Of a stretch of DNA of 64,000 bases, positions 5,749 through 53,121 are shown one piece after another. Source of the DNA: Candidatus Magasanikiibacteriota bacterium (GTDB lineage: Bacteria > Patescibacteriota > Patescibacteriia > Magasanikbacterales > UBA922). Both the position numbers and the translations under genes were made by a program. A model generated the notes under the pieces. It saw only the letters and a program-made list of their open reading frames with translations, did no database searches and was not told where the DNA came from. The stretch lies in contig JABIBU010000022.1 of NCBI GenBank assembly GCA_018652595.1, positions 50,346 through 114,345 on the forward strand, read 5' to 3'. Position 1 is the first letter of the stretch; each line of letters starts with the position of its first letter.

Positions 5749-8492
<2,744 letters not shown>

Positions 8493-8537
8493 TCCGCCGA
8501 CTGACGGACGAGAAATTCCTTTTCATGACTAGAACTA

Positions 8538-8568
8538 TAAAACAAAATAAACCCTTCTTAGAAGGGTT
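8538..8568 (+). terminator. Rho-independent terminator after purA
   Basis: aaacccttc-ttag-aagggttt followed by a T-run. Confidence 0.7.
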
Positions 8569-8709
8569 TATTTTTATAAAAATTATTTAAATGAAGAACC
8601 CCGCACATCATCTTGCCGAAGCAATAGACGTACGGGGCTCGAAAACCAGTAAGGCACCGACCAAGAATCTAGATGACCAGTGGGTCAATAGATCCGAGAT
8701 ACAAGTATC

Positions 8710-9261
8710 CTACTTAGAGCAGGGAAGCAAGTCGATCTTCCGCCAAACGTTGATGAGTAGACGGAAGTACAGCTTCCAGCAACCACCCTCATAACAGAGG
8801 GAGGCTATGTTGGGGCTCCTCCTCTCATCCAGGAAAATGGTACCAGACAAAATGATGTACTTCCTGTCTCTCAACTCCTCCGGGATGTCGGCCTGCTCAG
8901 CAAGAAAACGTACCGCATCTGAAAGACCAAAGTTGGCCTTGAGCGCAACAGCACGCTCACGCATTTCCGGTCCCTGGATCGAATTCTTGTCCCCGTCAAA
9001 ACAGGGGACAAATTTCAAATCCTCAACCTTAATACGTCTCGGAAGAACGTCTTCCACAACCTCCCAACCCGTCGGGATAAGCTCCGGACAGAGAATCTCT
9101 GCCGGAAAAAAAGTTTTGCCTGCCTGCTTTCCATCCAGAAAAGCCTGCAAACCTTCGCGGTTAACCCGCTCGGACCGAATTTGGTCCCCCAACTCCAACA
9201 ATTGCTCCAATGTTACCTTGCTCACGACACTCTCCTCACCCATAGGTAGACAACTAAGCAC
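8710..9261 (-). CDS. Orphan small protein in higher-GC islet A (track start is GTG at 9261; ATG MGEESVV at 9243)
   Basis: About 50% GC coding segment in about 33% GC surroundings; AGGTGA upstream of the GTG start; no family recognised. Confidence 0.45.
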   Translation of the reverse strand: MLSCLPMGEESVVSKVTLEQLLELGDQIRSERVNREGLQAFLDGKQAGKTFFPAEILCPELIPTGWEVVEDVLPRRIKVEDLKFVPCFDGDKNSIQGPEMRERAVALKANFGLSDAVRFLAEQADIPEELRDRKYIILSGTIFLDERRSPNIASLCYEGGCWKLYFRLLINVWRKIDLLPCSK

Positions 9262-9422
9262 TGAGCATCACCTGATGCACAATACCATAGCTGATACGCC
9301 TACAAGCAAAATAGCCAGGAACCACTCCCAGCCAAATTTCTATCTTTTTGGCTAAAATAAGATAAAAATTTGACTAGGATTTAATGACGTATAACTAATT
9401 TTATAAAGAACTTATAATATAT

Positions 9423-11561
9423 TTATAACACATTTAGGTGGTTTTGTCTATACTTAAAATACTCATCAATAGCGCCGTCAACAAGTCGCACAGCCAGACC
9501 AATATAATCCTCTGGATGTAATACTGTCAAAATTTCTTGTTTAACTACATCTTCCACATCTAGACCTGTTACAAACCTACGCAAATCTTCTAGAGTCACC
9601 TGCTTGCCACGTGATTCTTTTTTTACTATTTCATAAGCATCAATTCGACCATATTTTCTGAGGATTGTCTGTATTGCTTCAGTTATTATTTGTGGATTAT
9701 TATTAATTTCTTCGCGAGCAAATTCCACATTAGGACGGATAAGATCAAAAGCAATTTGTAAGTGTTTCAGAGCTACATATACATAACCAATAGCCTCACC
9801 ATAAGACTTTTCCAAATCATGATCAGACAAATCACGCTGTAAACGAGATACATCTAGCTCAGATGAAAAGACATTGAATAATGCGTTGGCTTTTTTTATA
9901 TTACCCTCTGCCACCTCAGCAAACCAAGGATTTATTTTGTGTGGCATTACAGACGAACCCACGTGGCTCTCCACCTTTGTAAAATACATTGTACCAAAAC
10001 CAGCATAGAGCGACATGTCTACAGCAATATCGCGAAGTACATTACCAACTTCTTGCACTGCTTGTAGTTTGGAAATCATATCCACATGTGTCCCCCGCTG
10101 ATCAGTCCAAAGTTCACACTCTAAATTTAAACGCTTGGTTAATTCTTTTGAATATTTTATCCAATCCAAATCTGGATAAGCCGATACAAAACTATTATAA
10201 TTCCCAACTGCTCCATTTATTTTTCCAGTCAATTTTACTGATTGCATTTTTTGCAAACCATTAGTTAGTCTAACTAAATAATTGGCAAATACCTTACCAA
10301 AAGTAGTCGGGCTCGCGGGCTGTACATGAGTCCTGGCCAAAAGTGGATTGTTTTTATATTTTTCAGACAAACTTTTCAACACTTCAGTTGTTTCCAATAC
10401 ACTTGGAACAAATAATTCACTCATTCCGTCATTCAGCATCATTTTGTAGGCCAAATTATTAATATCAGCCGAAGTCGTAAACATATGTACAAAACTGGCA
10501 ACATCTGATAGACTCGTGTTTTCCATTTTTTCTTTTATCCAAAGCTCGCATGCTTTCATGTCATGTTCAACAGGACCAACACCATTTCTACCCAAGTGAT
10601 CATACTGCAAAACTTCGTAAGCTGAACTTTCGGAAAAATTATCTGCCAAATCTTTTAACCATTCCTTTTCTTTTGGTGTAAATAATCTCACTACTTGCCC
10701 ATCAAAAAAATCAGATAAGCAGAGTAGATGTTCTATTTCGGCTTTTACACGATACTTGTGCAGTGCATACTCAGAAAAATAGTGGCGAAGTGGTGCGGTC
10801 ATTTCTCCATGTCGCCCATCCAAGGCTGAAGTACTTTGCAAAGATTTTTTATAACGATCTACTTTTATTACTTCTTCTAAAATATTTTCTATGTTTTCCA
10901 AATTCTTTACAATCAAAGCATCTTCAATACCCATCTCATGAAAATCTTCTCTAGTCGTTTGCCCTTGGCAAACCCCAACAAATTTTATTTTTTGATAAAA
11001 ACTGGAATAATAATCATCACTGTGATCACCAAACATTACAGTCTGTTCTGGCTTGATACCAATATTTTCTAAATGTTTAATAGCTTCTTCAAAAGCTCTT
11101 GGGTGTGGCTTTCTAAATTCCAGCTCAGGCGGAATATGCATAAAAGCAAAATCATCAATATCAAAACCAGCCTGAGCCAGTCTCTCTGACAACATTCTCA
11201 CTCTGTTCGTCACCAACCCAACGACTAAACCAGCCTGCTTTAGACTCTTTATTGCTTCTAGAGATCCAGAAGTAGGATCATACTTTTCACTTGGAGAGTG
11301 CTCTCTATAATTTCCCAAAACTACTTCCCACAATTCCTGTCCATTGCTAACACCAAGGAATAATTCCTTAAAAATATCTTCAAATGGCAAATTCTTTGCT
11401 TGAATCCGATAAATATCGTCTTTTGTTGGCTTAGATACAGAAAAACCACCCTTAATAAGGCGGTCTACAGTTTTTGTAATATTTTTTACCACAAAATCAT
11501 TAGAGGCAATCAAAGTATTGTCTACATCAAATATAACTGCTTTTATTTCTTTGTCTATCAT
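9423..11561 (-). CDS. purB: Fusion protein: N-terminal HAD-superfamily phosphatase domain + adenylosuccinate lyase
   Basis: FDVDNTL HAD motif I with a HAD core in the first ~230 aa; C-terminal TAPLRHYFSEYAL..., LARTHVQPASPTTFGK, GKINGAVGNYN, SSVMPHKINP, SRLQRDLSD collinear with E. coli PurB. Confidence 0.85.
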   Translation of the reverse strand: MIDKEIKAVIFDVDNTLIASNDFVVKNITKTVDRLIKGGFSVSKPTKDDIYRIQAKNLPFEDIFKELFLGVSNGQELWEVVLGNYREHSPSEKYDPTSGSLEAIKSLKQAGLVVGLVTNRVRMLSERLAQAGFDIDDFAFMHIPPELEFRKPHPRAFEEAIKHLENIGIKPEQTVMFGDHSDDYYSSFYQKIKFVGVCQGQTTREDFHEMGIEDALIVKNLENIENILEEVIKVDRYKKSLQSTSALDGRHGEMTAPLRHYFSEYALHKYRVKAEIEHLLCLSDFFDGQVVRLFTPKEKEWLKDLADNFSESSAYEVLQYDHLGRNGVGPVEHDMKACELWIKEKMENTSLSDVASFVHMFTTSADINNLAYKMMLNDGMSELFVPSVLETTEVLKSLSEKYKNNPLLARTHVQPASPTTFGKVFANYLVRLTNGLQKMQSVKLTGKINGAVGNYNSFVSAYPDLDWIKYSKELTKRLNLECELWTDQRGTHVDMISKLQAVQEVGNVLRDIAVDMSLYAGFGTMYFTKVESHVGSSVMPHKINPWFAEVAEGNIKKANALFNVFSSELDVSRLQRDLSDHDLEKSYGEAIGYVYVALKHLQIAFDLIRPNVEFAREEINNNPQIITEAIQTILRKYGRIDAYEIVKKESRGKQVTLEDLRRFVTGLDVEDVVKQEILTVLHPEDYIGLAVRLVDGAIDEYFKYRQNHLNVL

Positions 11562-11749: not shown

Positions 11750-12070
11750 CTACTCCTCGAAGACGAAGTTCGCCATAAGGAGAGCCTCGCGAACCACACG
11801 AAGAACAACTTTAAAAACATCGTTTGACAAGTCATCCTCCTTTTGAGCCATGGCACGCGTCTCTTCCAAGATTGCTGGAGCGTCATTGTAGATGACAACG
11901 GTCATCGAGTCCATCACCTGTAGAACCGTGAACCCCGCCGCTACCAGGCTTGTTGGTAAACCATGTTCGTTGAGATGCATCTCGAGACGCAAACGCATCT
12001 CGCCCACATCCTCAGGAAATCTGGAAACTAATATGCCGATCTCTTCACGAAGCTCTTTAATTGTGCTCAT
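11750..12070 (-). CDS. Orphan small protein in higher-GC islet B (106 aa)
   Basis: GC-rich ORF; GGAGGAG SD 6 nt upstream of the ATG; TTGACA-N17-TATGAT promoter upstream. Confidence 0.5.
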   Translation of the reverse strand: MSTIKELREEIGILVSRFPEDVGEMRLRLEMHLNEHGLPTSLVAAGFTVLQVMDSMTVVIYNDAPAILEETRAMAQKEDDLSNDVFKVVLRVVREALLMANFVFEE

Positions 12071-12282: not shown

Positions 12283-12310
12283 CCACCCCGAAAACATCGG
12301 GGTGTTTTTT
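12283..12310 (+). promoter_or_regulatory. Intrinsic-terminator-like hairpin (CACCCCG-AAAACA-CGGGGTG + T6) directly abutting the start codon of the downstream amidohydrolase gene; candidate attenuator
   Basis: 7-bp GC stem + TTTTTT immediately before the ATG at 12311; no plus-strand gene upstream to terminate. Confidence 0.4.
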
Positions 12311-13282
12311 ATGCAAGATTGGAATTTAAAAAATAAATTTTTAACAGCTGTAAATACTAACGGTGGATTTGTAAATTGCCATGGACATTTTGATAAAGCC
12401 TTTTTTATCAGTCCAGAGAAATTAGATAATTCTATGCTTGACATGCAAGCTAAGTGGCAATTGAGTGATGATACAAAAAGAAATAGTTCAATTGATGAAA
12501 TAGCTGATAGAATTAGATGTGCTCTTGATATTATGATTGATCAAGGTGTAAAAACAACTCTAAGTTTTATAGATGCTTACTCAGCTGTCGGACAAAAAGC
12601 AGTAATAGCTGCCAATCAAGTTAAACAAGAGTATAAATATAAAATAAATTTTTTAATCGCCCCTCAGCCAATAGGCGGATTACTAGACCCCGAAGAAAGA
12701 AAAATATTTGAACTGGCAGCTAGTAAATCTGACATAGTCGGAGGTCTACCCTCACGAGATCGTCCTTACATACAAAAAAGTTTTGATATTCTTTTTTCTA
12801 TTGCAAAAAAACTAGACAAACCAATACACGTCCACATTGACCAAGAAAATAATCCAGATGAAAGAGACACTGAAACACTGATTTATTATACAAAAAAATA
12901 TGGCTATGAAGGCAGAGTAGTTGCAATTCATGCTGTATCAACTACCACACAACCAAAAAAATATAGAAAGCACTTGTACAAGAAAATGGCAGAACTCAAA
13001 ATAAGTGTGGTTGTTTGCCCGTCAGCAGCGCTTAGCATGAAACCAACAAATAATAAATTATCACCTATTCGTAATTCAATTGCTCCAATTTCAGAAATGA
13101 TAGAAGCTGGAATTACTGTTGGACTAGGCGTAGACAATATATATGATTTTTACCAGCCTTTTGTAGACGGGGATCTATGGTTTGAGACTAGAATGTTGAT
13201 GGAAGCTACTCGCTTTTATGATTTTGAAAAAGTTTTAAAAATTGTAACTGAAAATGGAAAAAAAATATTAAATATTAAATAA
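12311..13282 (+). CDS. Amidohydrolase-superfamily enzyme, cytosine deaminase (CodA)-like, lacking the N-terminal beta-sandwich domain (track start is GTG at 12302)
   Basis: HGHFD metal motif; HIDQENNPDERDTETL...AIHAVS aligns with CodA HCDEIDDEQSRFVETV...ASHTTA; GLGVDNIYDFYQP aligns with CodA GHDDVFDPWYP. Confidence 0.65.
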   Translation: MQDWNLKNKFLTAVNTNGGFVNCHGHFDKAFFISPEKLDNSMLDMQAKWQLSDDTKRNSSIDEIADRIRCALDIMIDQGVKTTLSFIDAYSAVGQKAVIAANQVKQEYKYKINFLIAPQPIGGLLDPEERKIFELAASKSDIVGGLPSRDRPYIQKSFDILFSIAKKLDKPIHVHIDQENNPDERDTETLIYYTKKYGYEGRVVAIHAVSTTTQPKKYRKHLYKKMAELKISVVVCPSAALSMKPTNNKLSPIRNSIAPISEMIEAGITVGLGVDNIYDFYQPFVDGDLWFETRMLMEATRFYDFEKVLKIVTENGKKILNIK

Positions 13283-13301
13283 TATAATTATTAAATAAAA
13301 T

Positions 13302-14939
13302 ATGGAACAAGACAAAAATACATATGCCCATATCGCCTCATATGAGCCAAAAAACAAAGAAGAGGTAAAAAAAGTAGTATTATTATATTCCGGTGGATTA
13401 GATACTTCGGTAATGCTCAAATGGATTAAAGATTTTTATGAAGCAGAAGTAATTGCTCTGTGTATTGATATTGGACAGCAGGTAGATGATTTGGATGCAA
13501 TAAAACAAAAAGCATTGGATTTGGGAGCAATAAAATCAATTGTCATTGACGCAAAAGACGAATTTGCTGATAAATACATCTCTCGTGGCATAAAAGCCAA
13601 TGGTCATTATCAGGGTGACTACAACTTAAGCACCCCAATAGGCAGACCACTCTTAGCAAAATTGGCTGTCCAGGTGGCCATGGAAGAAAAAGCCGACACT
13701 ATTGCTCATGGCTGTACTGGCAAGGGCAATGATCAAGTCAGAATTGAAGGTACTGTAGTTACCTTGAACCCAGATTTAAAAGTTATTGCCCCAGTAAGAG
13801 AATGGGGGATGGGTCGTGATGAGGAAATTGAATATGCCAAAAAGCATAATATTCCTATCCCCCACACAATTGACAAATCATATTCGTCTGACGACAATAT
13901 GTGGGGAGTAACCAGCGAAGGTGGTGAAATAGAAAATCCAGAACTTGTCCCACCAATGAAAAAAATTCTTCAGGTCTGCACACATCCGGCTGACGCACCA
14001 GACGAAGAAGAGTTGGTTGAAATTGAATTTGTCAAAGGTATTCCCACAGCTCTCAATAACGAGGAAATGAAATTAAGCGAACTTATTATAAAATTGAACA
14101 AGTTGTCCGGCAGACACGGTATTGGTATTGCCCACCATATTGAAGATCGAATCGTAGGTCTAAAAGTTAGAGGCATTTATGAACAACCGGCTGCTCACAC
14201 AATTATAAAAGCTCACAAAGAATTGGAAAAATACGTTTGCACTCGACACGAAAATAAATTCAAAGAATTAGTTGATCAGGAATGGGCATATCTTTGTTAC
14301 GGTGCTTTGTGGTTTGAACCGTTGATGAAAGATCTGTCAGGTTTTATAGACACCATGAATGAAAAGGTGAACGGAAAAGTAACTCTGCGCCTATTCAAGG
14401 GCCACTGCGACACAGTTGCACTAAAAACTCCAGACGCTCTATTTGACGAAAAACTAGCCACATTCATGAAGGATGACCTATTCAATCAAAATGCATCATC
14501 GGGCTTTATTGAACTATGGACCTTGCAAATGAAGATGGCAAAACAAAGCAAAAAGAATGTTCTACTTACTATAGGCGGACAAGAAAACAAAGAAGGTCTT
14601 CTCCCAGAAATAAAAGCACTTGAAAAATTGAATTGTGTGCTGTATGCTACCGAACATACGAGTGAATTCTTGGATAAGCACGGAGTCAAAAATCGGATGG
14701 TTTATAAGATATCCAATGGCGATTCTGAAAAAAGACCTAATATAGCAACACTACTAAGAGAAAGAAGATTTGATCTTATCATAAATATTCCCTCAGCCGA
14801 AAGAAACTTTACAACCGACACAGATGGTGAAAAAATTCGTGAATTAAGCATAAAAAGCAACGTGCCTTTGGTAACAAATATAGACGTTGCCAAACATACT
14901 ATCACTCAATTGCAAGATGTAATAGAAAACAAAATGTAA
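13302..14939 (+). CDS. argG: Argininosuccinate synthase fused to a C-terminal CarB-type MGS-like (allosteric) domain
   Basis: LYSGGLDTSV PP-loop, GCTGKGNDQVR, RGIYEQPAAHTII collinear with human-type ArgG; last ~130 aa (ATEHTSEFLDKHGV...RRFDLIINIPSA...) aligns to the CarB C-terminal MGS-like domain. Confidence 0.8.
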   Translation: MEQDKNTYAHIASYEPKNKEEVKKVVLLYSGGLDTSVMLKWIKDFYEAEVIALCIDIGQQVDDLDAIKQKALDLGAIKSIVIDAKDEFADKYISRGIKANGHYQGDYNLSTPIGRPLLAKLAVQVAMEEKADTIAHGCTGKGNDQVRIEGTVVTLNPDLKVIAPVREWGMGRDEEIEYAKKHNIPIPHTIDKSYSSDDNMWGVTSEGGEIENPELVPPMKKILQVCTHPADAPDEEELVEIEFVKGIPTALNNEEMKLSELIIKLNKLSGRHGIGIAHHIEDRIVGLKVRGIYEQPAAHTIIKAHKELEKYVCTRHENKFKELVDQEWAYLCYGALWFEPLMKDLSGFIDTMNEKVNGKVTLRLFKGHCDTVALKTPDALFDEKLATFMKDDLFNQNASSGFIELWTLQMKMAKQSKKNVLLTIGGQENKEGLLPEIKALEKLNCVLYATEHTSEFLDKHGVKNRMVYKISNGDSEKRPNIATLLRERRFDLIINIPSAERNFTTDTDGEKIRELSIKSNVPLVTNIDVAKHTITQLQDVIENKM

Positions 14940-14945
14940 TAATAC

Positions 14946-15860
14946 ATGTCTAAATTAAAAACCAGATTCCTAGACAAAGAATTCAAAAACCCCATTGTCC
15001 TTGCATCGGGCATCTTAGGGTTAACCGCGGCCAGCATGAACAATGCGGTGAATAATGGGTGTGGTGGTGTGACTGTAAAATCTGTTTCCAAAGATGCTAG
15101 ACCCGGACACCCAAATCCTACTATGACCGGCACTGATCATTATTTTATCAATGCGGTTGGGCTATCTAATCCAAGTGTGGCCGAAGGAATAAAAGAATTT
15201 GCAAAATTTAAGGAGATGACTAATGCGCCTTTGGTTGGTAGTATTTTTGCTGGAACACCAGATGAATTTGCTGAGGTAACTGAAATAATTTGTCAGTCCC
15301 CGATTGATTTTTTGGAAGTAAATGTTTCTTGCCCAAATGTAAGCAAAGAATTTGGCACACCTTTTGCTTACGATACCAAAGCGGTTGAGGTAATTACAAA
15401 AAAAGTAAAAGAAAAATCCACTGTACCAGTTATAATAAAACTTACTCCCCAAGCTTGGAACGTGGCTGAGATTGCAAAAGTAGCAGAAGATGCTGGCGCT
15501 GATGCTATTTGCGCTGGAAATACTATTTCTGGCATGGCAATAGATATCAGAGCAAGGAAGCCAGTGTTACACAACAAACAAGGTGGTGTATCTGGCCCTG
15601 CTTTATTTCCTGTGGCTTTGAAGGCTGTTTATGATATTTATAAAACTGTAAAAATCCCAATCATCGGCACTGGTGGAATTACCACAGGCGAAGATGCCAT
15701 CGCCATGGTTATGGCTGGGGCAAGCTTACTAGGTGTTGGTTCTGCAGTCTACTATCGAGGACAAGATGTATTTGAAAAAATAAATAATGAAATGACAGAA
15801 TTCATGAAAAAAGAAAATATAAATTCACTTGAAGAAATTAGAGGAATAGCTCATAAATAA
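14946..15860 (+). CDS. pyrD: Dihydroorotate dehydrogenase catalytic subunit (class 1B)
   Basis: NPIVLASGILG, ...GGVSGPALFPVALK..., TGGITTGEDA motifs. Confidence 0.88.
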   Translation: MSKLKTRFLDKEFKNPIVLASGILGLTAASMNNAVNNGCGGVTVKSVSKDARPGHPNPTMTGTDHYFINAVGLSNPSVAEGIKEFAKFKEMTNAPLVGSIFAGTPDEFAEVTEIICQSPIDFLEVNVSCPNVSKEFGTPFAYDTKAVEVITKKVKEKSTVPVIIKLTPQAWNVAEIAKVAEDAGADAICAGNTISGMAIDIRARKPVLHNKQGGVSGPALFPVALKAVYDIYKTVKIPIIGTGGITTGEDAIAMVMAGASLLGVGSAVYYRGQDVFEKINNEMTEFMKKENINSLEEIRGIAHK

Positions 15861-15861
15861 T

Positions 15862-16698
15862 ATGGAAAATAATAATCCACAATTTATTCCGATATCAAAA
15901 ATAGTTGAAGAAGCCCAAGATATTAAAACTTTTTATTTTGAACATAGTTTAAATTCCAAACCAGGACAATTTATAATGCTTTGGGTACCAGAGCATGACC
16001 AGAAGCCATTTTCTATTGCGTATGATGATGGTAAATCTTTTGGTCTAACTTTTTTCAAACGTGGCCCAACCACGACAAAACTTTTTGATATGAAAGTTGG
16101 TGAAAGAGTTGGGATTGAAGGTCCGTTTGGCACGAGCTTTTCTCGTAAACCCGATACTCACTACATCATGGTCGCTGGAGGTTATGGTGCGGCACCGTTG
16201 GGGTTCTTGGCAGAATCGCTTTTGTCTCCCCCTGCCGGAGGGGGAGATGCCCGCAGGGCAGAGGGGGTGGGAGTAGACTTCTGTGTTGGTGCTAGAAATA
16301 AAGATTTAGTTTTATTTAAAAACAGAATAGAAAAAATTCCAAATACAAAACTTCATATCGCGACAGACGACGGTAGCGAAGGACATAAAGGATACATCAC
16401 TGATATATTATCAAACTTAATTGATAGCGCTGAAAAAAAAGTATTAGTTGTCACTTGTGGTCCAGAACTTATGGAAAAAAAGATTTTGAATATCTGTAAT
16501 GAAAAAAATACCGATTGCGAAATAAGCATTGAGAGATATATGAAATGTGGAGTTGGTATTTGCGGACAGTGCGCAGTTGACCCAATTGGAATTTGCATGT
16601 GTAAAGAAGGTCCAGTAGTAAAACGCGAACTGGCCAATAAAATAACTGAGTTTGGAAAATACCATCGCGATAAAAGTGGAAAAATTATTTATTTTTAA
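15862..16698 (+). CDS. pyrK: Dihydroorotate dehydrogenase electron-transfer subunit with a GC-rich in-frame insertion
   Basis: FAD/NAD-binding fold, C-terminal 2Fe-2S Cys cluster CGVGICGQCAV, adjacent to pyrD. Confidence 0.85.
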   Translation: MENNNPQFIPISKIVEEAQDIKTFYFEHSLNSKPGQFIMLWVPEHDQKPFSIAYDDGKSFGLTFFKRGPTTTKLFDMKVGERVGIEGPFGTSFSRKPDTHYIMVAGGYGAAPLGFLAESLLSPPAGGGDARRAEGVGVDFCVGARNKDLVLFKNRIEKIPNTKLHIATDDGSEGHKGYITDILSNLIDSAEKKVLVVTCGPELMEKKILNICNEKNTDCEISIERYMKCGVGICGQCAVDPIGICMCKEGPVVKRELANKITEFGKYHRDKSGKIIYF

Positions 16699-16708
16699 TT
16701 TAAAAAAT

Positions 16709-17302
16709 ATGAAAGATTTAACACTAAAACTACACGAGATAGACGCGATTAAATTCGGAGAATTCAAACTCAAAAGCGGTATCATATCACCAATTTATAT
16801 TGACTTACGTGTGACAGTCTCCTATCCAAAAGTTTTGAAAATGGTTGCAGGTGCAATGTGGGAAAGAGTGAATAATATAAATTTTGACTTACTCTGTGGA
16901 GTACCCTACACTGCACTACCTTTTGCAACGGTTATGTCTGCAGAACATGATAAACCAATGGTCATGCGCCGCAAAGAAGTAAAAGGCTATGGAACTCGAA
17001 AAGCAATAGAGGGTTATTTTGAAAATGGACAAAATTGTCTCATTGTCGAAGATTTGATAACTAGTGGATCAAGTGTGTTTGAAACTATCGAACCGTTAGA
17101 GCATGAGGGATTAAAAATAACTGACATCGTAGTCCTGGTAGATCGTGAACAAGGCGGTAAAAAACATATTGAAGGCAAAGGATACAATCTACACTCCGTC
17201 TTAACAATTTCACAAGTCTTGGAAACGCTAGAGGTAGAAGAAAAACTAGACAGTGAAATGGTAAGCAAAGTAAAAGAATTTATCACCTCTAACCAAGTTT
17301 AA
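16709..17302 (+). CDS. pyrE: Orotate phosphoribosyltransferase (track ORF starts at 16652 overlapping pyrK; ATG MKDLTLK at 16709 more likely)
   Basis: [30 protein letters not shown]-binding motif. Confidence 0.88.
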
Positions 17303-17303
17303 T

Positions 17304-18068
17304 ATGCAAACATACAAACAACGCGCTGAACTCTGTTCAAATCCTACCGCTCACAGACTTTTTAAACTAATGGAAGAAAAGCAAACCAATTTGGCAATTG
17401 CGGCCGATGTAATATCAAAACAAGAGTTAATAAAAATTGCCGACGAACTTGGGCCTGAAATTTGTGTACTAAAAACTCATATAGATATTATAGAAGACTT
17501 TGATGACGACCTAGTAATACAATTGCAAAGACTATCCGAAAAACATAACTTCTTACTTTTTGAAGATAGGAAATTTGCTGACATCGGCAACACAGTAAAA
17601 CACCAATATGAAAATGGGGTCTACCATATTGCAGACTGGGCCGATATTACCAATGCTCACACTGTACCAGGACCAGGAGTTATCGAAGGGTTGAAAGAAG
17701 TCGGACTCAGGAAAGGACGGGGGCTTCTGCTCCTTGCTGAGATGAGCCCAAAAGGAAATCTGGCCACTGGTAGCTATACTGAGGCCAGCCTAAAGATGGC
17801 AGAGGAGCACAAAGACTTTGTTATAGGTTTTATAACAATGAAAAAATTACTTGATGATCCTTGTTTTATAAATATGACTCCGGGCGTAAAGCTCGTCCAA
17901 GGTGGAGATGCACTAGGTCAGCAATATAATACACCAGAAAAAGTGATCAAGGAGCAGGGTAGCGATATAATAATTGTAGGCCGAGGAATTTATCAAGCAG
18001 ACGATCCACTAGCCGAAGCAAAAAAATACCGAGAAGCTGGCTGGCAGGCATATCAAAATAGATTGTAA
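17304..18068 (+). CDS. pyrF: Orotidine-5'-phosphate decarboxylase (long/eukaryote-like form)
   Basis: LAIAADV...LKTHIDII...GRGIY motifs, 254 aa. Confidence 0.85.
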
Positions 18069-18079
18069 AATAATAATTA

Positions 18080-18120
18080 AAAAAGTAGAAACGTGCCATG
18101 ACACGTCTCTACTTTTTTAA
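18080..18120. terminator. Bidirectional terminator between pyrF and a convergent gene
   Basis: agtagaaacgt/acgtctctact stem flanked by A- and T-runs. Confidence 0.65.
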
Positions 18121-18127
18121 TTATTAT

Positions 18128-18823
18128 TTAGTGTGGCAACTGATCAATCATTTTCTTAAAATCCTGCACATCCTGCTTACTGAACCCAACTTTACCTTTA
18201 TCTTTCTTAATTTGTTTTTTCATACTCTTTCTTACCAATCTACCAAAAGATCCGCCAGTTGGTAATTTACTTGCATGAGAATCAATCAGTTGTAAAATAT
18301 ATTCTCTGTCTTTCGCACTTAAATTCTTATAGGTCGCCGGGCTTTTCATTACAGCCCGACGCAATTTCATCTTCATGCCCTGTGTACCGCTCATACGGCT
18401 TAATTTTCCAGTGCTAAATCCAGCCTTCTCAACAGCTTTACCATAAACATCTTTAGCTCCTGTTTCTGCATTTTTCAAAGCTTCAGCCTTTTCTTTTGCT
18501 TGTCTAGCTTTTACCATTCTACGAATATAATTATATCGCAACTCATCTCTCTCTTGATCTCCCATATTTTCTCTGGACAGTGATTCATCAACTTCGGCAG
18601 GTCTACTAATAGATGTTGTGGCTTTCTGACCAATTCCTTCTGGGTGTGTAATTGAAGTACTTATTTTTGTGCTTTCACCCATAGCCCGACTCATAGAAGT
18701 TTTAGCTCTCTTAATTGAATCCCTACCCAAATGGGTAGTAGAAAAACTCTGAGCTCTTCCTGACTGTGATGAGCCAGAAGTCTTATTAAAAATTGGTAAG
18801 TTTTTTAGAGGTCCGATTGGCAT
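18128..18823 (-). CDS. Hypothetical basic, low-complexity protein (231 aa)
   Basis: Long ORF with S/T/K/R-rich disordered composition; no recognisable domain. Confidence 0.5.
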   Translation of the reverse strand: MPIGPLKNLPIFNKTSGSSQSGRAQSFSTTHLGRDSIKRAKTSMSRAMGESTKISTSITHPEGIGQKATTSISRPAEVDESLSRENMGDQERDELRYNYIRRMVKARQAKEKAEALKNAETGAKDVYGKAVEKAGFSTGKLSRMSGTQGMKMKLRRAVMKSPATYKNLSAKDREYILQLIDSHASKLPTGGSFGRLVRKSMKKQIKKDKGKVGFSKQDVQDFKKMIDQLPH

Positions 18824-20268: not shown

Positions 20269-21628
20269 GAAGCCATGTGTCGGCTTTTTTGATTTTTACT
20301 TCGACAATCTTACCAACCAAAGATTTATCACCAGAAAAATGAGTAAGTCTCATCTCACTGGAATTACCGGCACAAATCCCATCTTTGTATCTTTCTACCA
20401 ATACTGAGGCTGTCTTGCCGATAAATTTTTGATTTTTCTTGTAAGTAATTTCTTTCATCAGGTCTTGCAACACAAACCAGCGTCGTTTCTTTTCTTCAAT
20501 GCTTACATCGTCCTTAAAAGCCTTGTCTGCTACAGTACCAGAGCGCGTAGAGTATTTTGCTGGATAAGAAATATCAAAATCACATTCCTTATACATATCT
20601 ACAGTATCTTGAAATTCTTTTAAACTCTCACCACAAAATCCTACAATAATATCTGTGCCAATAGAAATACCTGGCTTTTTGGCTTTAATTTTCTTTATAA
20701 GATCAATAAAAAACTCCCGGTCATGTTTGCGATTCATTTTTCTAAGTACTTCTGTACTACCAGACTGAACCGGCAGATGAAGAAAGTTTATTTGCTTTGG
20801 AAGTGTAAGTGCGTCAATCACCTCATCATCCATATATATTGGATGCGGACCAGTCCAATGAATTCTCTCTATTCCTTCAACCTGATTTACCTCCCAAAGT
20901 AATTTGGCAAAATCATTTTTGCTATATTTATTTTCTTTAGAAAAAAATTCAGGGTCTAATGCCACGTAATGATTTACAATCTCACCTAGCAAAGTTATTT
21001 CTTTGCAGCCATTTTTTGCTAGTTTTTTTATTTCTTCCAAAATATCTTGCAAAGGTCTGTTTTTTTCTCTGCCTCTGGCATAAGGCACAGCACAATATGT
21101 ACAAAAATGATCACACCCAGTCTGGATAGGAATAAAAGCTTGAAAATCATTTTTATACTTTGGTGTAATTTTTAAGTATTCGCTATCTAAACCCAGCACC
21201 AATTTATCATCTGTAGATAATAAATTGGTGCTGGCTAAATTTATTTTTCTAAAATCAGGATTCAATTTGCACAACATGTCAGGAAGTTTTACCATGTCTG
21301 CCGTTGGAAAATATAGATCAACCTTTTGTAATTTTTTAAAAAGCTTTTTATCCTTGTCTCGACCAGGCATACAGCCAGTCACAGCCACAATTAAATTTGG
21401 TTTATTTTTCTTAAGCTTTGCAAAGTTTCGTGCACCACCAAATATGCGGTCTTCTGCACTATCGCGCACTGAACAACTATTCATAATTATCACATCAGCC
21501 TCTTCTGGTGTACCAACCTTTTCCAAACCCATATTACACAAAACAGACTCCATGCGTTCGCTGTCGTTCTTATTCATCTGACATCCAAAAGTAATTATAT
21601 TGTATTTATATTGCATATATTTATTCAT
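20249..21628 (-). CDS. miaB: tRNA-i6A37 methylthiotransferase (radical SAM)
   Basis: ITFGCQMNKNDSE MTTase N-domain, CxxxCxxC radical-SAM cluster (CDHFCTYC), TRAM C-terminus. Confidence 0.9.
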   Translation of the reverse strand: MNKYMQYKYNIITFGCQMNKNDSERMESVLCNMGLEKVGTPEEADVIIMNSCSVRDSAEDRIFGGARNFAKLKKNKPNLIVAVTGCMPGRDKDKKLFKKLQKVDLYFPTADMVKLPDMLCKLNPDFRKINLASTNLLSTDDKLVLGLDSEYLKITPKYKNDFQAFIPIQTGCDHFCTYCAVPYARGREKNRPLQDILEEIKKLAKNGCKEITLLGEIVNHYVALDPEFFSKENKYSKNDFAKLLWEVNQVEGIERIHWTGPHPIYMDDEVIDALTLPKQINFLHLPVQSGSTEVLRKMNRKHDREFFIDLIKKIKAKKPGISIGTDIIVGFCGESLKEFQDTVDMYKECDFDISYPAKYSTRSGTVADKAFKDDVSIEEKKRRWFVLQDLMKEITYKKNQKFIGKTASVLVERYKDGICAGNSSEMRLTHFSGDKSLVGKIVEVKIKKADTWLLEGDMV

Positions 21629-51509: not shown

Positions 51510-51581
51510 GCGGGTATGGTATAATGGTTATTATCTCAGTTTTCCAAACTGATGATACGGGTTCGATTCCCGTTACCCGCT
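51510..51581 (+). tRNA. tRNA-Gly (UCC)
   Basis: gcgggta acceptor, anticodon loop tttccaa, T-arm acgggttcgattcccgt. Confidence 0.8.
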
Positions 51582-51637
51582 CTACACCTTGACATTTTGT
51601 CTAGGGTTTGATATAATTATCAACACAATTTACATAT

Positions 51638-51710
51638 CGCGGGGTAGAGCAATTGGCAGCTCGTTGGGCCCATAACCCAAAGGTTCTCGGTTCAAGTCCG
51701 AGCCCCGCAA
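51638..51710 (+). tRNA. Initiator tRNA-fMet (CAU)
   Basis: C1:A72 mismatch, three G:C pairs in the anticodon stem, loop cccataa. Confidence 0.8.
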
Positions 51711-51716
51711 CAAAGT

Positions 51717-51790
51717 GCGGTAGTAGTTCAGTTGGCTAGAACGTCTCCTTGCCAAGGAGAAGGTCGCCAGTTCGAGTCTGGTCTACCGCT
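51717..51790 (+). tRNA. tRNA-Gly (GCC)
   Basis: gcggtag acceptor, anticodon loop ttgccaa, T-arm gccagttcgagtctggt. Confidence 0.75.
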
Positions 51791-51794
51791 CACA

Positions 51795-51830
51795 AAAAAA
51801 ACATCGCTAAAAAATAGCGATGTTTTTTTA
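51795..51830 (+). terminator. Rho-independent terminator after the tRNA cluster
   Basis: aacatcgcta-aaaaa-tagcgatgtt + T7. Confidence 0.8.
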
Positions 51831-51918
51831 TACATTTTTTACCATACACTACTTTACAAAATCATACACATATGGTAACTTTATGTTATCTACCACAACA
51901 AACCTGAAGAGGGAAGAT

Positions 51919-52128
51919 ATGCCATGGAACAGAGAATTACCACTTACAGTGGGAACAAAGGTACTCCGTGATGTCAACGGAAAAACAGGAACAATAAAGA
52001 AGTTGGTCAGGAAGAAAGATGGGAGCATCACCAGAATTGTAATATTGATGGACGGAATGAGGATAGATCTAAATTTCCGTAGCGTCGCCTTTATGGCAGA
52101 CTTCTCGATAGCCCCCGAAAAAGTATAG
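51919..52128 (+). CDS. Small hypothetical protein, moderately GC-enriched (islet H; start MPWNREL)
   Basis: GAAGAGGGAAG SD-like motif upstream; 69 aa. Confidence 0.4.
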   Translation: MPWNRELPLTVGTKVLRDVNGKTGTIKKLVRKKDGSITRIVILMDGMRIDLNFRSVAFMADFSIAPEKV

Positions 52129-52168
52129 TGCCCCAACCTCTCTCGCATGCTTATACATTGTGCGGTAG

Positions 52169-52245
52169 GCTAAAAACAACCCCATGCCTACTTAAATTCT
52201 AATATTACTTTAGAATTTGAGTAGGGAGGATAGGGGTTGTTTTTA
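52169..52245. repeat. 77-nt near-perfect hairpin/palindrome (about 33-bp stem with small bulges)
   Basis: ctaaaaacaacccc...cctac...ttaaattctaa-tattac-ttagaattt...gtagg...ggggttgtttttag. Confidence 0.75.
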
Positions 52246-52282
52246 GTTTATATTAATTCTAAAATCACAGTTATCATGCTCA

Positions 52283-52315
52283 CAAAAACCCCTCTTACTT
52301 AAGATGGGGTTTTGT
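52283..52315. terminator. Bidirectional terminator (AAAACCCC-loop-GGGGTTTT)
   Basis: 8-bp stem, A/T runs on both sides. Confidence 0.7.
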
Positions 52316-52345
52316 ATAAAAATAAAAAATGTCTTACATCATGTT

Positions 52346-52774
52346 CTATCTTCTTTTGCCTTTGGTCCACTTATTGTCATTAAACATCAAAACTACCAAA
52401 AGTAAGAATGTAAAAATAATTGCCTCACCATACCAACCAATACCAACTGCCATACCAATCGCAGACACTGCCCAAAGCCCGGCAGCAGTAGTTAGGCCTT
52501 CTATTGTACCTCCATCTTTGTGTATAATAATACCAGCCCCCAAAAAACCAATACCGGTTAAAATCTGCGCTGCAACCCTAGTTGGTTCACCATTAGCAAA
52601 ACCATACAGAGACATCATGGTAAAAAGTGCAGCACCCGCCGCTACCAAACCATAGGTTCTAGGGCCTGCTGACTTACCAATGTGCTCTCTTTGCCATCCT
52701 AAAATCCCACCAAGGAATAAGGCTAATAATATTTGTCCGGCAAAAATTAAATAGTTTAAGATTGCTGTCTCCAT
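52346..52774 (-). CDS. mgtC: MgtC/SapB-family membrane protein
   Basis: LFLGGILGWQRE...GPRTYGLVAAGAALF signature, 142 aa. Confidence 0.75.
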   Translation of the reverse strand: METAILNYLIFAGQILLALFLGGILGWQREHIGKSAGPRTYGLVAAGAALFTMMSLYGFANGEPTRVAAQILTGIGFLGAGIIIHKDGGTIEGLTTAAGLWAVSAIGMAVGIGWYGEAIIFTFLLLVVLMFNDNKWTKGKRR

Positions 52775-52904
52775 ATTTTTTTAATTAATTTTTAAGACTC
52801 TCTATATTTTACCATAAAAAAGATATAATTCACACATCATCAACACTTACACCACAGATAACTTGACTTTTTATAGCCGATTTGATATAATTATCTCGTT
52901 TTAT

Positions 52905-52978
52905 GGGCCTGTAGCTCAGCTGGTTAGAGCACCTGCTTTGCAAGCAGGGGGTCAGGAGTTCGAATCTCCTCAGGTCCA
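52905..52978 (+). tRNA. tRNA-Ala (UGC)
   Basis: gggcctg acceptor, anticodon loop tttgcaa, ggagttcgaatctcc T-arm. Confidence 0.8.
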
Positions 52979-52984
52979 CAAAAG

Positions 52985-53079
52985 TCTAAAATAAAAACAA
53001 AAAGCCGAGGTAGCTCAGGGGCCCGCCCGCAACGCCTGAGCAAGCTCTAAACTTGCGATGGCGGGCGAGCATAGTGTGC
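52985..53079 (+). repeat. Duplicated 5' portion of tRNA-Phe (leader + acceptor/D-arm, about 30 nt direct repeat) followed by a GC-rich nested hairpin; tRNA fragment, not a functional tRNA
   Basis: ctaaaataaaaa(caaaaa)gccgaggtagctcagggg matches 53111-53140; no 3' acceptor strand downstream. Confidence 0.6.
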
Positions 53080-53121
53080 CAAAAGACATCTTTTGTAAAA
53101 AAAGTTTAATCTAAAATAAAA

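Follow-up and report, generated by a model that had tools for sequence, protein, structure and literature searches.

Organization of the Operon and Its Flanking Regions

The window analyzed here is a 64-kb stretch of DNA from a Candidatus Magasanikbacteria bacterium, an ultra-small member of the CPR. The operon of the original prediction is confirmed: the + strand carries a single tight operon of six ORFs between positions 12311 and 18068, with intergenic spacings of 1–19 bp, and all six ORFs passed a curated family threshold. The first (12311–13282) encodes an amidohydrolase of 323 residues belonging to the PRK06886 family (370.7 bits, cutoff 340), and the second (13302–14939) an argininosuccinate synthase fused to an MGS domain (ArgG-MGS; 514 bits vs. 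334 with PRK00509 and 55 bits vs. 24.1 with Pfam MGS). These are followed by PyrD, the catalytic subunit of a class 1B type dihydroorotate dehydrogenase (14946–15860; TIGR01037, 328.7 vs. 270), PyrK, the electron-transfer subunit of dihydroorotate dehydrogenase B (15862–16698; NF000796, 267.4 vs. 224), the orotate phosphoribosyltransferase PyrE (16709–17302; NF010382, 231.7 vs. 208) and the OMP decarboxylase PyrF (17304–18068; TIGR01740, 206 vs. 92.3). Gene callers place the start of PyrE at the ATG in 16709, and a longer ORF begins with a TTG at 16652. The four pyr genes correspond to three enzymatic steps of UMP synthesis, and not to the last four as had been stated.

With respect to a canonical pyr operon (Bacillus pyrR-P-B-C-AA-AB-K-D-F-E), pyrD, pyrK, pyrE and pyrF of the window are also of the usual kind and lie close together, but the amidohydrolase and ArgG-MGS stand 5' of them, where the usual first pyrimidine enzymes encoded by pyrB, pyrC and carAB would be expected. 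The predicted absence of carAB, pyrB and pyrC from the operon, and of argH from its vicinity, was borne out by tblastn searches, which found no pyrB, pyrC, carA, carB, OTC or argH across the 64-kb window, in agreement with the Pfam annotation of the neighbors. No source of citrulline was seen within the window. The region around the operon is a general nucleotide-metabolism island containing guaB, purA and HAD-purB. The lyase encoded upstream on the - strand (9423–11561) is not argH but a HAD-adenylosuccinate lyase fusion that adjoins purA and guaB.

A terminator-like site was predicted from the sequence at 12284–12310 (+ strand). It consists of a hairpin (CACCCCG-AAAACAT-CGGGGTG) and a T6 run that abuts the first ATG, looks like a terminator or attenuator placed before the first gene, and lies in a leader RNA with a folding z of -3.06. 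The same design, with a run of U6–8, is found 5' of homologous operons in four other loci (L080, L081, L003 and L009; see below). The gene upstream of the leader is divergent in the window, L003 and L009, and co-directional in L080, where it ends about 550 bp upstream. A leader terminator is likewise present in attenuation-controlled pyr operons, but neither PyrR nor a PyrR-binding RNA was found at the operon of the window; the leader matched no Rfam family. At the opposite end, a long inverted repeat flanked on either side by T runs (18075–18122, terminator-like site with no strand assigned) is a predicted bidirectional terminator for the operon and the convergent gene at 18128–18823.

The ArgG-MGS Fusion

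The ArgG part of the fusion comprises residues 20–417, approximately, with the Pfam domains Arginosuc_synth and Arginosuc_syn_C at 24–412. It passed the equivalog HMMs and shares with ArgGs of solved structure (EC 6.3.4.5; Thermus thermophilus 1J1Z, Legionella 6XNQ) 50–55% identity across the entire catalytic core, the SGGLDTS ATP-pyrophosphatase motif and the citrulline and aspartate ligands. In 117 fused homologues the positions that bind citrulline, aspartate and ATP are kept, apart from four exceptions: in human numbering, S92P and A10L are invariant, Ser189 is replaced by Thr in 115 of the 117 sequences, and Ala36 by a variable hydrophobic residue. Since the active site is canonical, the product should be argininosuccinate. 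Differently from ArgG, the window protein has an additional C-terminal domain of about 125 residues, and the fused form has the PRK06886 amidohydrolase and pyr genes as neighbors rather than argF and argH.

The additional domain (residues ~420–545; Pfam MGS match at 433–525, nucleotides ~14598–14876) confirms the predicted fusion to a CarB MGS-like domain. Its best CarB match covers positions 929–1050 of TIGR01369, and its best match of solved structure is the allosteric domain of human CPS1 (2yvq); it matches the same Pfam family as the allosteric domain of the CPSase large subunit (E. coli CarB 937–1073, human CPS1 and the CAD equivalent). The equivalents of CarB T974, T977, K993, N1015, D1025, R1030 and T1042 (E. 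coli numbering) are present in all 15 MGS sequences compared, and K954 is likewise kept, with an Arg in one of them. We take these residues to correspond to the phosphate and ribose site for IMP and UMP in CarB; since they are kept, a regulatory role is also plausible. The design logic may well be that of CPSase, i.e., nucleotide sensing built into the first committed pyrimidine enzyme, but the domain is found here on ArgG, on the amidohydrolase, on an AsnA-like protein or alone, and never on CPSase.

The fusion is common in CPR, where it forms over 110 clusters at 90% identity. Among the clusters listed, most are nameless and every name given is plain "argininosuccinate synthase". We found no paper that discusses it.

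The PRK06886 Amidohydrolase

The only name carried by PRK06886 in NCBIfam is "hypothetical protein"; source databases label the enzyme as a cytosine deaminase-related hydrolase. The protein had been described as truncated; it covers positions 8–325 of the 327 of the PRK06886 profile and is thus full length for its own family, which consists of a TIM barrel without the β-sandwich domain of CodA. It is very strongly conserved, with about 60% identity across CPR phyla. Sequence and model comparisons identify it as a TIM-barrel metal hydrolase akin to CodA and AtzC. An AF2 model (pLDDT 89) gave Foldseek TM values of 0.80–0.85 to CodA, 5-methylcytosine deaminase and AtzC. The expected membership in the superfamily of dihydroorotase (PyrC) holds, but dihydroorotase HMMs gave no match and dihydroorotases were absent among the best 50 structural matches.

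The best structural matches are CodA and 5-methylcytosine deaminase (1K6W, 4R88; TM 0.84–0.85), which share the same mononuclear metal ligands; H24, H26, H175 and D275, together with H207, are retained. The site is predicted to be of the mononuclear CodA/AtzC type, as opposed to the usual binuclear type of dihydroorotases. The protein does not group with cytosine deaminases, however: identity is 22–24%, CodA HMMs scored 78–90 bits against cutoffs of 403–483, the catalytic glutamate of the CodA HxxE motif (Glu217) is an invariant glutamine (Gln178), CodA Asp314 is Asn, and neither codB nor upp is in the context.

The closest protein of solved structure by sequence is AtzC, N-isopropylammelide isopropylaminohydrolase (2QT3, 4CQB; E = 1e-19, ~24% identity, TM 0.80). 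The two have in common the HxH-DK motif, the DN(I)xDF(W/Y)xPF loop and the equivalents of AtzC Lys65 and Asn304 (K29 and N276). The window protein is nonetheless outside the AtzC family: it has 323 residues instead of 403 and no β-sandwich domain, His219 and Asp220 of AtzC are Asp177 and Gln178, and the genomic context is wholly different.

Comparative Analysis of Gene Neighborhoods

The comparison of gene neighborhoods tied the amidohydrolase to ArgG-MGS or ArgH. Where it is encoded as a stand-alone protein, one or the other is present in 31 of 34 loci. ArgG-MGS occurs in 8 of the 34 and is adjacent in all eight; ArgH occurs in 23, in 22 of which it is adjacent (≤300 bp), and it is a bona fide ArgH (TIGR00838, 322 bits vs. 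279.5). Argininosuccinate is the sole metabolite common to ArgG and ArgH. MGS and amidohydrolase are encoded together in a single ORF (~475 residues) in a further 41 loci, most of them from outside CPR (Planctomycetes, Verrucomicrobia, sulfur and cable bacteria, among others); two of these loci were inspected and showed no conserved neighbors. CPR carry the homologous MGS domain on ArgG, and it also occurs alone (L080) or on the AsnA-like protein (L065).

A natural control is provided by ArgGs that lack the MGS domain. A metagenome scan yielded 76 such loci, and in the approximately 29 with recognizable neighbors these were OTC, ArgH or CarAB, and never the amidohydrolase. In contrast, wherever the downstream DNA is covered, the amidohydrolase and pyrD come next after the fused ArgGs. 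MGS-less ArgGs are found in ordinary arginine operons and fused ArgGs in pyr operons.

The amidohydrolase is combined with ArgG-MGS, ArgH or both, and with pyrD/K/E/F, in six operon variants that come from different CPR lineages: (1) the window, L003, L009 and L070; (2) L080; (3) L081; (4) L045 and L065; (5) L014; and (6) L006. None of them contains pyrB, pyrC or carAB in the DNA covered, which extends up to 10 kb per side and ends within about 3 kb downstream in L003 and L009. In a Roizmanbacteria locus (L071), ArgG-MGS is followed by a guanidino hydrolase similar to DDAH and arginine dihydrolase, instead of the PRK06886 enzyme.

Other loci link the amidohydrolase with further pyrimidine genes. 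Alongside the amidohydrolase and argH, L054 and L068 contain canonical pyrB and pyrC together with OTC or carAB, and therefore the amidohydrolase is not simply a replacement. In L054 the amidohydrolase, ArgH and OTC adjoin pyrB and pyrC; carA lies directly 3' of the amidohydrolase in L016 and L068; a uridine-kinase-like gene adjoins it in L072; and in several loci it stands beside a PRTase that scores as PyrE-like and not as Upp. In one Actinomycetota MAG contig (L034), a lower-GC MGS-amidohydrolase gene takes the place of the C-terminal 60% of pyrC, flanked by a truncated pyrR'-'pyrB ORF and intact carAB. We regard this displacement as weak evidence, since it rests on one MAG contig, and faulty assembly could have produced it.

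A Proposed Route from Argininosuccinate to UMP

The best reading of these contexts, which we put forward tentatively, is that UMP synthesis would be entered here by a non-canonical route: argininosuccinate, instead of carbamoyl phosphate and aspartate, would be the precursor of the ring, and would be hydrolyzed to ornithine and dihydroorotate or carbamoyl-aspartate under nucleotide feedback exerted through MGS. ArgG-MGS, with its intact active site, would form argininosuccinate from citrulline, aspartate and ATP; in relatives with argH beside the amidohydrolase, the lyase working in reverse may form it from arginine and fumarate. In the central step the amidohydrolase, proposed to be an argininosuccinate-cleaving hydrolase with a mononuclear metal, would cut the guanidino C–N bond and release ornithine. 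The other product might be N-carbamoyl-aspartate or, starting from the six-membered cyclic anhydride of argininosuccinate, dihydroorotate directly, in analogy with AtzC acting on N-isopropylammelide. Dihydroorotate would then be converted into UMP by PyrD/PyrK, PyrE and PyrF, whose assignments are supported by family membership. As suggested by the conserved ligand residues and the alternative fusions, the CarB-type MGS domain would make the committed, ATP-consuming step subject to feedback, with a uridine or inosine nucleotide as the probable effector; alternatively, or in addition, it may dock ArgG to the amidohydrolase.

Several observations were counted in favor of this route, among them the association in 31 of 34 loci, the contrasting contexts of MGS-less and fused ArgGs, the six operon variants, the canonical ArgG active site, the kept MGS ligand residues and, as weak evidence, the displacement in L034. 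AtzC and CodA, the closest characterized relatives (E = 1e-19 and TM 0.85, respectively), act on the amidine carbon of a ring, from which they displace an amine, and the AtzC reaction, in which a ring carbon between two nitrogens loses an N-alkylamine by hydrolysis, may serve as a model for the release of ornithine. The MGS-amidohydrolase fusions would represent a Rosetta-stone link, and the guanidino hydrolase of L071 was taken as a non-homologous substitute for the amidohydrolase. On the other side, carbamoyl-aspartate as product would need a dihydroorotase, which the operon does not encode, and dihydroorotate an extra cyclization step. The canonical pyrB and pyrC of L054 and L068 and the lack of a citrulline source in the window also count against it. 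Moreover, among the non-CPR carriers of MGS-amidohydrolase are cultured, free-living bacteria (Telmatocola, Zavarzinella), which presumably have complete canonical pathways and no evident need for a bypass. We know of no biochemical precedent for the argininosuccinate-cleaving reaction, and no literature was found on the route, on the amidohydrolase or on its pairing with ArgG-MGS.

It is conceivable, if unlikely, that ordinary functions merely lie side by side, with ArgG-MGS serving arginine synthesis from scavenged citrulline and bearing a domain that senses nucleotides or ornithine, the amidohydrolase being an unrelated deaminase and the clustering reflecting the packing of small CPR genomes. 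The canonical ArgG part and the surrounding nucleotide island would fit, as would the classical co-regulation of arginine and pyrimidine genes via carbamoyl phosphate (PMC6245113). Against this stand the lack of argH in the window, the contrasting contexts of MGS-less and fused ArgGs, the fusion of the same MGS domain to the amidohydrolase in other phyla, and an association (31/34) far too consistent for chance packing. That the amidohydrolase is a non-canonical dihydroorotase cyclizing carbamoyl-aspartate, with ArgG and ArgH nearby only through aspartate or regulation, would agree with its superfamily, its position just 5' of pyrD (and of carA in L016 and L068) and the replacement of most of pyrC between pyrB and carA in L034. 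We consider it quite improbable, given the HMM and structural searches, the metal site and the canonical PyrC already encoded in the same operon in L054 and L068; besides, nothing would supply carbamoyl-aspartate in the operons devoid of pyrB, and the association with ArgG/ArgH and the MGS fusions would be left unexplained.

A role in metabolite repair appears very unlikely. Argininosuccinate anhydrides arise spontaneously (PMC6918381), and an enzyme adjoining ArgH or ArgG, in a superfamily where hydrolysis of cyclic amides is common, could re-open them for use by ArgH; yet the gene is very strongly conserved and kept in ~1 Mb genomes where most biosynthesis has been lost, it forms part of pyr operons and is fused to a nucleotide-type regulatory domain, and the window operon has no ArgH to benefit. 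There is similarly little probability that the enzyme deiminates a guanidino group, e.g., arginine to citrulline and ammonia, thereby feeding ArgG as an arginine deiminase analogue, and forming with ArgG and ArgH an aspartate-deaminating cycle or feeding carbamoyl phosphate with OTC. Release of ammonia from amidines and guanidines is typical of the clade, and the L054 arrangement would suit it, but in the window and the five other variants argininosuccinate would be a dead end or part of a futile, ATP-burning three-enzyme cycle, the deaminase catalytic Glu is absent, and the pyr linkage and missing pyrB/OTC would find no explanation. Finally, a salvage deaminase supplying uracil from cytosine or a related base to a phosphoribosyltransferase is extremely improbable: it has in its favor the CodA fold, the database name, and the uridine-kinase-like and PRTase neighbors, but not the CodA HMM scores, the replacement of the essential Glu217 and of Asp314, the PyrE-like rather than Upp-like character of the PRTases, or the links to ArgG, ArgH and MGS.

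The original prediction had offered either allosteric cross-talk between arginine and pyrimidine metabolism or an alternative route to an orotate precursor. The two are compatible and not mutually exclusive: comparative genomics favors the route, itself a proposal drawn from context, and the kept CarB residues make regulation plausible. The wide conservation of the pairing suggests an undescribed synthesis of the pyrimidine ring from argininosuccinate. More speculatively, the hairpin and U-run of the leader may add transcriptional attenuation.

Gene content of the pyrimidine operon

The operon at 12311-18068 of the window consists of six ORFs on the + strand, with intergenic gaps of 1-19 bp only. 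The organism is assigned to Candidatus Magasanikbacteria (CPR/Patescibacteria), as MAGs so named contain identical proteins. Pfam and NCBIfam profile searches placed all six as originally predicted, each passing the threshold of its own family. The first gene (12311-13282) encodes a 323-aa amidohydrolase matching PRK06886, a 'hypothetical protein' family, with 370.7 bits (cutoff 340). The second (13302-14939) encodes a 545-aa argininosuccinate synthase (PRK00509, 514.1 bits vs. a cutoff of 334) that carries a Pfam MGS domain at residues 433-525 and is called ArgG-MGS here. The other four genes code for the late steps of UMP synthesis, and every one exceeds its curated NCBIfam equivalog or subfamily threshold: PyrD (14946-15860; TIGR01037, 328.7 vs. 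270), PyrK (15862-16698; NF000796, 267.4 vs. 224), PyrE (16709-17302; NF010382, 231.7 vs. 208) and PyrF (17304-18068; TIGR01740, 206 vs. 92.3). Residues ~122-138 of PyrK form a short insertion rich in Gly/Ala/Arg and in GC (PPAGGGDARRAEGVGV, window ~16225-16275), which is atypical of this 38%-GC genome; the orthologue in the homologous locus L070 is shorter by 9 residues.

The operon is preceded by gatB, guaB, purA and a divergent gene for a HAD-adenylosuccinate lyase fusion, and followed by miaA, miaB and thrS. Family libraries annotated the rest of the window as housekeeping genes up to ~43.6 kb, and ORFs past this point were covered by tblastn alone. When PyrB, PyrC, OTC, CarA, CarB, ArgH and AsnA-like queries from related loci were used in tblastn, no such genes were found in the 64-kb window, the sole match being a weak similarity of ArgH to the PurB-type lyase of the HAD fusion. 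The absence of argH from the vicinity, noted in the original prediction, therefore extends to all 64 kb, and the ArgG of the window, having neither argH nor OTC there, lacks the association with arginine genes (argF, argH). CarAB, PyrB and PyrC may be absent from the genome as a whole.

The HAD-adenylosuccinate lyase fusion (712 aa, 9423-11561, - strand) has an N-terminal HAD phosphatase and a lyase part of the E. coli type (PRK09285, 428.8 bits, slightly below the cutoff of 446), and adjoins purA (7188-8492, + strand) and guaB (5749-7179, + strand). It was considered as the missing ArgH and rejected, because it scores as an E. coli-type PurB, reaches merely 34 bits with argH and has purA and guaB as neighbours. 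PurB-like genes were also seen near the amidohydrolase in loci L011 and L013.

At 12284-12310 (+ strand) a GC-rich hairpin is followed by a run of six T that touches the start codon of the first operon gene, and a bidirectional terminator lies 3' of pyrF. A hairpin with a U6-8 run directly before the first operon gene was also found in L080 (~8965-9000), L081, L003 and L009. The sequences of the stems vary among these five loci and the design is common to all. In L080 the gene 5' of the hairpin is co-directional, and the window, L003 and L009 have a divergent gene there. No Rfam match was obtained in the leader at either gathering or permissive thresholds. The element resembles a 5'-leader attenuator, possibly sensitive to UTP.

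The amidohydrolase is a full-length PRK06886 protein

The amidohydrolase had been described as truncated and CodA-like. The first description was not borne out: the protein covers positions 8-325 of the 327 of PRK06886, a family consisting of the TIM barrel only, and scores above the equivalog cutoff. A pseudogene or truncated CodA was rejected on account of this full length, of the identity of about 60% across CPR phyla (58-66%) and of the confident AF2 model (pLDDT 89, pTM 0.90). PRK06886 is also a compact family: 1.84 billion proteins yielded 78 representatives at E ≤ 1e-30.

Among proteins of solved structure, AtzC (N-isopropylammelide isopropylaminohydrolase) is the nearest in sequence (E = 1e-19) and CodA comes second, and the model superposes on CodA, 5-methylcytosine deaminase and AtzC with TM scores of 0.80-0.85 (Foldseek; 0.85 best). 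The ligands of a mononuclear metal (H24, H26, H175 and D275, plus H207) are kept on the TIM barrel. The likeness to CodA thus holds for the fold and for the metal site, which in both proteins is made of HxH, the strand-5 His and the strand-8 Asp, but not for the cytosine-deaminase profiles, which give 78.6-89.5 bits against cutoffs of 403-483, nor for the catalytic residues. The Glu of the HxxE motif (Glu217), which CodA requires for activity, is replaced by Gln178 in 63 of 63 family members, and ≥95% of these have Asn276 at the position of CodA Asp314. The active site of AtzC, which we take to comprise His60, His62, His217 and Asp303 together with Lys65, His219, His249 and Asn304, has equivalents in the amidohydrolase for H60, H62, K65 (Lys29), H217, H249, D303 and N304 (Asn276); AtzC His219 corresponds to Asp177, and the overall identity is only ~24%.

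No dihydroorotase model matched the protein at E ≤ 0.01, nor did it qualify as an allantoinase or hydantoinase, and no dihydroorotase was present among the 50 best PDB fold matches of the model. By the sequence and model features tested, the amidohydrolase therefore does not appear to be a cytosine deaminase, nor does it appear to be a dihydroorotase. It is a member of the clade whose enzymes hydrolyse C-N bonds at carbons of the amidine type.

The ArgG-MGS fusion

The predicted fusion was confirmed by the Pfam search, in which the MGS domain (PF02142, residues 433-525) scored 55 bits as compared to a gathering score of 24.1, with ArgG models covering residues 20-417 (TIGR00032, 458.1 bits, cutoff 268.2). 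The ArgG part is 50-55% identical to ArgGs of solved structure. The best 120 homologues of ArgG-MGS show at least 60% identity; all 117 of those above 500 aa have the MGS domain, which is missing from two shorter ones of 435 and 450 aa. These proteins come from Magasanik-, Moran-, Roizman- and Torokbacteria, Microgenomates and other CPR groups, and the fusion is thus a lineage-wide feature of CPR. Where the databases give them a name it is invariably plain 'argininosuccinate synthase', and the majority of clusters are unnamed.

The ATP-pyrophosphatase motif and the positions of the citrulline and aspartate ligands, presumably Y87, T119, N123, D124, R127, S180, S189, E270 and Y282 in human ASS1 (UniProt P00966), are kept in the ArgG of the window and in the 117 fused homologues. 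Deviations, in human numbering, are the invariant changes S92P and A10L, the change S189T, and I, V or L at the position of A36. Because these positions are conserved, the fused ArgG should still yield argininosuccinate from citrulline, aspartate and ATP. Urea or another ureido compound in place of citrulline was rejected as unnecessary, the citrulline ligands being conserved.

The MGS part matches positions 929-1050 of the CarB model TIGR01369 (E = 5.6e-14), and its nearest solved match is the allosteric domain of human CPS1 (2yvq). A role as catalytic methylglyoxal synthase or IMP cyclohydrolase is unsupported, since the matches are CarB and CPS1 allosteric domains and methylglyoxal synthase is reached at E ~1. 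In the IMP/UMP site of E. coli CarB we assume that K954, T974, T977 and K993 contact the phosphate and N1015 the ribose. When 15 MGS domains were compared, taken from ArgG-MGS and from MGS-amidohydrolase proteins (fusions with an N-terminal MGS domain), the equivalents of T974, T977, K993, N1015, D1025, R1030 and T1042 were found in all 15, and that of K954 was Lys in 14 and Arg in one; T1016 and T1017 were not conserved. The predicted ligand is a nucleotide, or else ornithine, and its binding may modulate the attached enzyme.

The same domain occurs elsewhere in the gene cluster, as a separate 131-aa gene between the amidohydrolase and pyrD in L080 (11591-11986) and at the C-terminus of an AsnA-like protein in L065. 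That a domain within one cluster is attached to ArgG, attached to the amidohydrolase or free-standing is a classical signature of cooperating proteins. The AF2 model of the MGS-amidohydrolase fusion, inspected for domain docking, had a pTM of 0.65 and a low-confidence linker.

Association of the amidohydrolase with ArgG-MGS and ArgH

When one genome per species was scanned, 69 loci encoding the amidohydrolase were recovered, and later additions brought the number of distinct loci to 75. In 41 of them the gene is a single ORF of ~475 aa, with the same MGS domain at the N-terminus and the amidohydrolase part at the C-terminus. These loci are nearly all non-CPR (Planctomycetes, Verrucomicrobia, Beggiatoa/Thioploca, Thiodictyon, cable bacteria, Competibacteraceae, Myxococcales, Actinomycetota, Dehalococcoidia and others), and the PRK06886 score of the non-CPR fused form is 432 bits. 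No conserved neighbours of the fused gene were found between the Telmatocola and Rhodomicrobium loci. The other 34 loci, from CPR, encode the stand-alone form. ArgG-MGS is directly adjacent in 8 of these and ArgH lies within 300 bp in 22, and this ArgH is bona fide (TIGR00838, 322 bits vs. a cutoff of 279.5). Overall, the comparison of gene neighbourhoods gave ArgG-MGS or ArgH at 31 of the 34 stand-alone loci; a 32nd (L053) has an ArgG cut off at the contig end. Argininosuccinate is the one metabolite common to ArgG and ArgH.

A metagenome scan with the ArgG-MGS alignment returned 80 loci. No PRK06886 gene was found near the ArgG in any of the 76 loci where it is MGS-less; ~29 of these had recognisable neighbours, which were classical arginine contexts (OTC-ArgG-ArgH, CarAB). 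Among the loci with a fused ArgG, L079 is too short for its neighbours to be judged, and in L080 and L081 the fused ArgG is followed by the amidohydrolase and then pyrD, in L080 also by pyrK and pyrE. The contexts of MGS-less and fused ArgG are a natural control for the association.

At least six arrangements, in different lineages, join the amidohydrolase (AH), ArgG-MGS and/or ArgH, and pyrD, pyrK, pyrE and pyrF. The order AH-ArgG_MGS-PyrD-K-E-F is found in the window, L003, L009 and L070 (OZ246405.1, a 1.23-Mb contig), ArgG_MGS-AH-MGS-PyrD-K-LOG-F-E in L080 and ArgG_MGS-AH-PyrD in L081. ArgH takes part in ArgG_MGS-AH-(EamA or AsnA_MGS)-PyrD-like-ArgH-PyrF-PyrE (L045, L065), EamA-AH-ArgH-x-PyrD-K-x-E-F (L014) and PyrE-PyrD-x-AH-ArgH-AsnA-like (L006). 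No pyrB, pyrC or carAB was found in the six variants within ≤10 kb per side, L003 and L009 ending within ~3 kb downstream. Two further loci also contain canonical enzymes, in the orders PyrB-D-K-C-E-F-AH-ArgH-OTC (L054) and AH-CarA-CarB-PyrB-PyrC-ArgH-PyrD-K (L068), and this indicates that the amidohydrolase is more than a simple replacement of PyrC.

It is firmly established that the pyr operon occurs here in a new form and that ArgG, the MGS domain and the amidohydrolase make up a conserved three-way module, and this link is solid even if the reaction proposed below is wrong. A full-text literature search for the ArgG-MGS fusion, PRK06886, an argininosuccinate-cleaving hydrolase, partial CPR pyr pathways and operons of this kind returned nothing relevant.

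A possible route from argininosuccinate to dihydroorotate

Our tentative interpretation, which we regard as a serious possibility, is that the amidohydrolase converts argininosuccinate into ornithine and N-carbamoyl-aspartate or dihydroorotate, with nucleotide feedback through the MGS domain. This is the simplest scheme that uses all the links among ArgG, ArgH, MGS and pyr genes; substrate and product are suggested by the gene context and by analogy with AtzC and CodA. ArgG-MGS would produce argininosuccinate from citrulline and aspartate; in the argH-linked relatives it may be formed from arginine and fumarate by ArgH working in reverse, the equilibrium constant of ArgH being in the 10 mM range. 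The amidohydrolase would then attack the guanidino carbon, with ornithine as the leaving group. The second product would be N-carbamoyl-aspartate or dihydroorotate. Argininosuccinate anhydride, which resembles the substrate of AtzC, also exists in a six-membered form, and dihydroorotate could arise directly if this cyclic form were the substrate; spontaneous formation of the anhydride has been described for the five-membered ring (PMC6918381). Dihydroorotate would pass to PyrD/K, PyrE and PyrF, and feedback on the committed step would act on ArgG where this enzyme is dedicated to the route, and on the amidohydrolase where ArgG is shared with arginine synthesis.

It is unlikely that the operon simply holds an ordinary ArgG beside an unrelated deaminase, a reading contradicted by the MGS-less ArgG control and by the MGS fusions. 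An alternative dihydroorotase is less probable still, given the fold and the type of site, the co-occurrence with PyrC and the missing source of carbamoyl-aspartate. We consider it improbable that the amidohydrolase is a repair hydrolase of argininosuccinate anhydrides: such a function fits the linkage with ArgG and ArgH, but fits poorly with the embedding among pyr genes, the nucleotide-type domain and the retention in 1-Mb genomes. A guanidino deiminase supplying citrulline has a similarly small probability, as argininosuccinate would be a dead end in the operon of the window. A salvage deaminase of the cytosine type, for which the catalytic Glu is missing and the HMM scores are far under the cutoff, seems very improbable indeed.

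With somewhat more reserve, we suggest that the argininosuccinate route may be general. Many CPR, and possibly other bacteria through MGS-amidohydrolase, would need no carbamoyl phosphate, aspartate transcarbamoylase or dihydroorotase to make the pyrimidine ring; argininosuccinate, from ArgG-MGS or from ATP-free reversal of ArgH, would be split into ornithine and dihydroorotate by an AtzC/CodA-like hydrolase under feedback through a transplanted CarB domain. To our knowledge, de novo pyrimidine synthesis is regarded as among the most invariant pathways in biology, and CPR bacteria are, as far as we know, commonly described as incapable of nucleotide synthesis. If the proposal is true, both the metabolic pathway and the enzyme activity are new, with a new reaction and a function for the conserved 'hypothetical' PRK06886 in many phyla. 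A large fraction of CPR could then form UMP from host- or environment-derived arginine or citrulline, and KEGG-module reconstructions, which would score the pathway as incomplete, would need changing. It would also be a case of a regulatory domain shifting between enzymes to track the committed step of a pathway.

Additional features of the compared loci

EamA-family (DMT) transporter genes directly adjoin the amidohydrolase gene in L014 (9111-9989) and L045 (10951-11376), and may encode importers or exporters of arginine, citrulline or ornithine. A protein resembling asparagine synthetase A and the class II aaRS core recurs just 3' of AH-ArgH in L005 (12332-13186), L006, L008 and L012, and in L065 (10889-12307) it has an MGS domain of its own at the C-terminus; adenylation of a carboxylate, e.g. 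for ring closure, is a conceivable role of this protein. In L080 pyrK is separated from pyrF by the insertion of a SLOG/LOG-family (LDcluster4) gene (13644-14213). In L072, a CPR contig with ArgG-MGS, an aspartate ammonia-lyase/fumarase-like gene (20280-21590), a possible source of fumarate, lies directly 5' of pyrD, and the amidohydrolase gene is ~4 kb away, beside a uridine-kinase-like gene.

Two loci are suggestive with regard to the module. In L071 (Roizmanbacteria), the genes that come after ArgG-MGS are a DDAH/arginine-dihydrolase-like gene (6327-7136), whose product belongs to a superfamily other than that of the amidohydrolase, one in which guanidino groups are hydrolysed as well, and an 8-oxoguanine-deaminase-like amidohydrolase gene (7133-8476). 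Further 3' are genes for a 454-aa protein without family match, a PyrE-like and a UPRT-like protein, and a CTP synthase gene is divergent upstream. In L034 (Actinomycetota MAG; 7822-10960), an MGS-amidohydrolase gene of lower GC content (58% vs. 69%) takes the place of the C-terminal 60% of pyrC, which is cut at ~170 codons. It is flanked by a truncated pyrR'-'pyrB ORF, in which the N-terminal half of PyrR is joined to PyrB minus its first ~28 residues, and by intact carA-carB. This single contig, to be read with caution, represents either in-situ gene displacement or misassembly.

In the window itself, ORFs without family match lie on both sides of the operon, one coding for an acidic protein of 106 aa (11750-12070, - strand) and the other for a lysine-rich protein of 231 aa (18128-18823, - strand), and further assemblies of this organism contain both of them. 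Six tRNA genes (Gly-TCC, Met, Gly-GCC, Ala, Phe and Pro) are clustered at 51510-53388 (+ strand).
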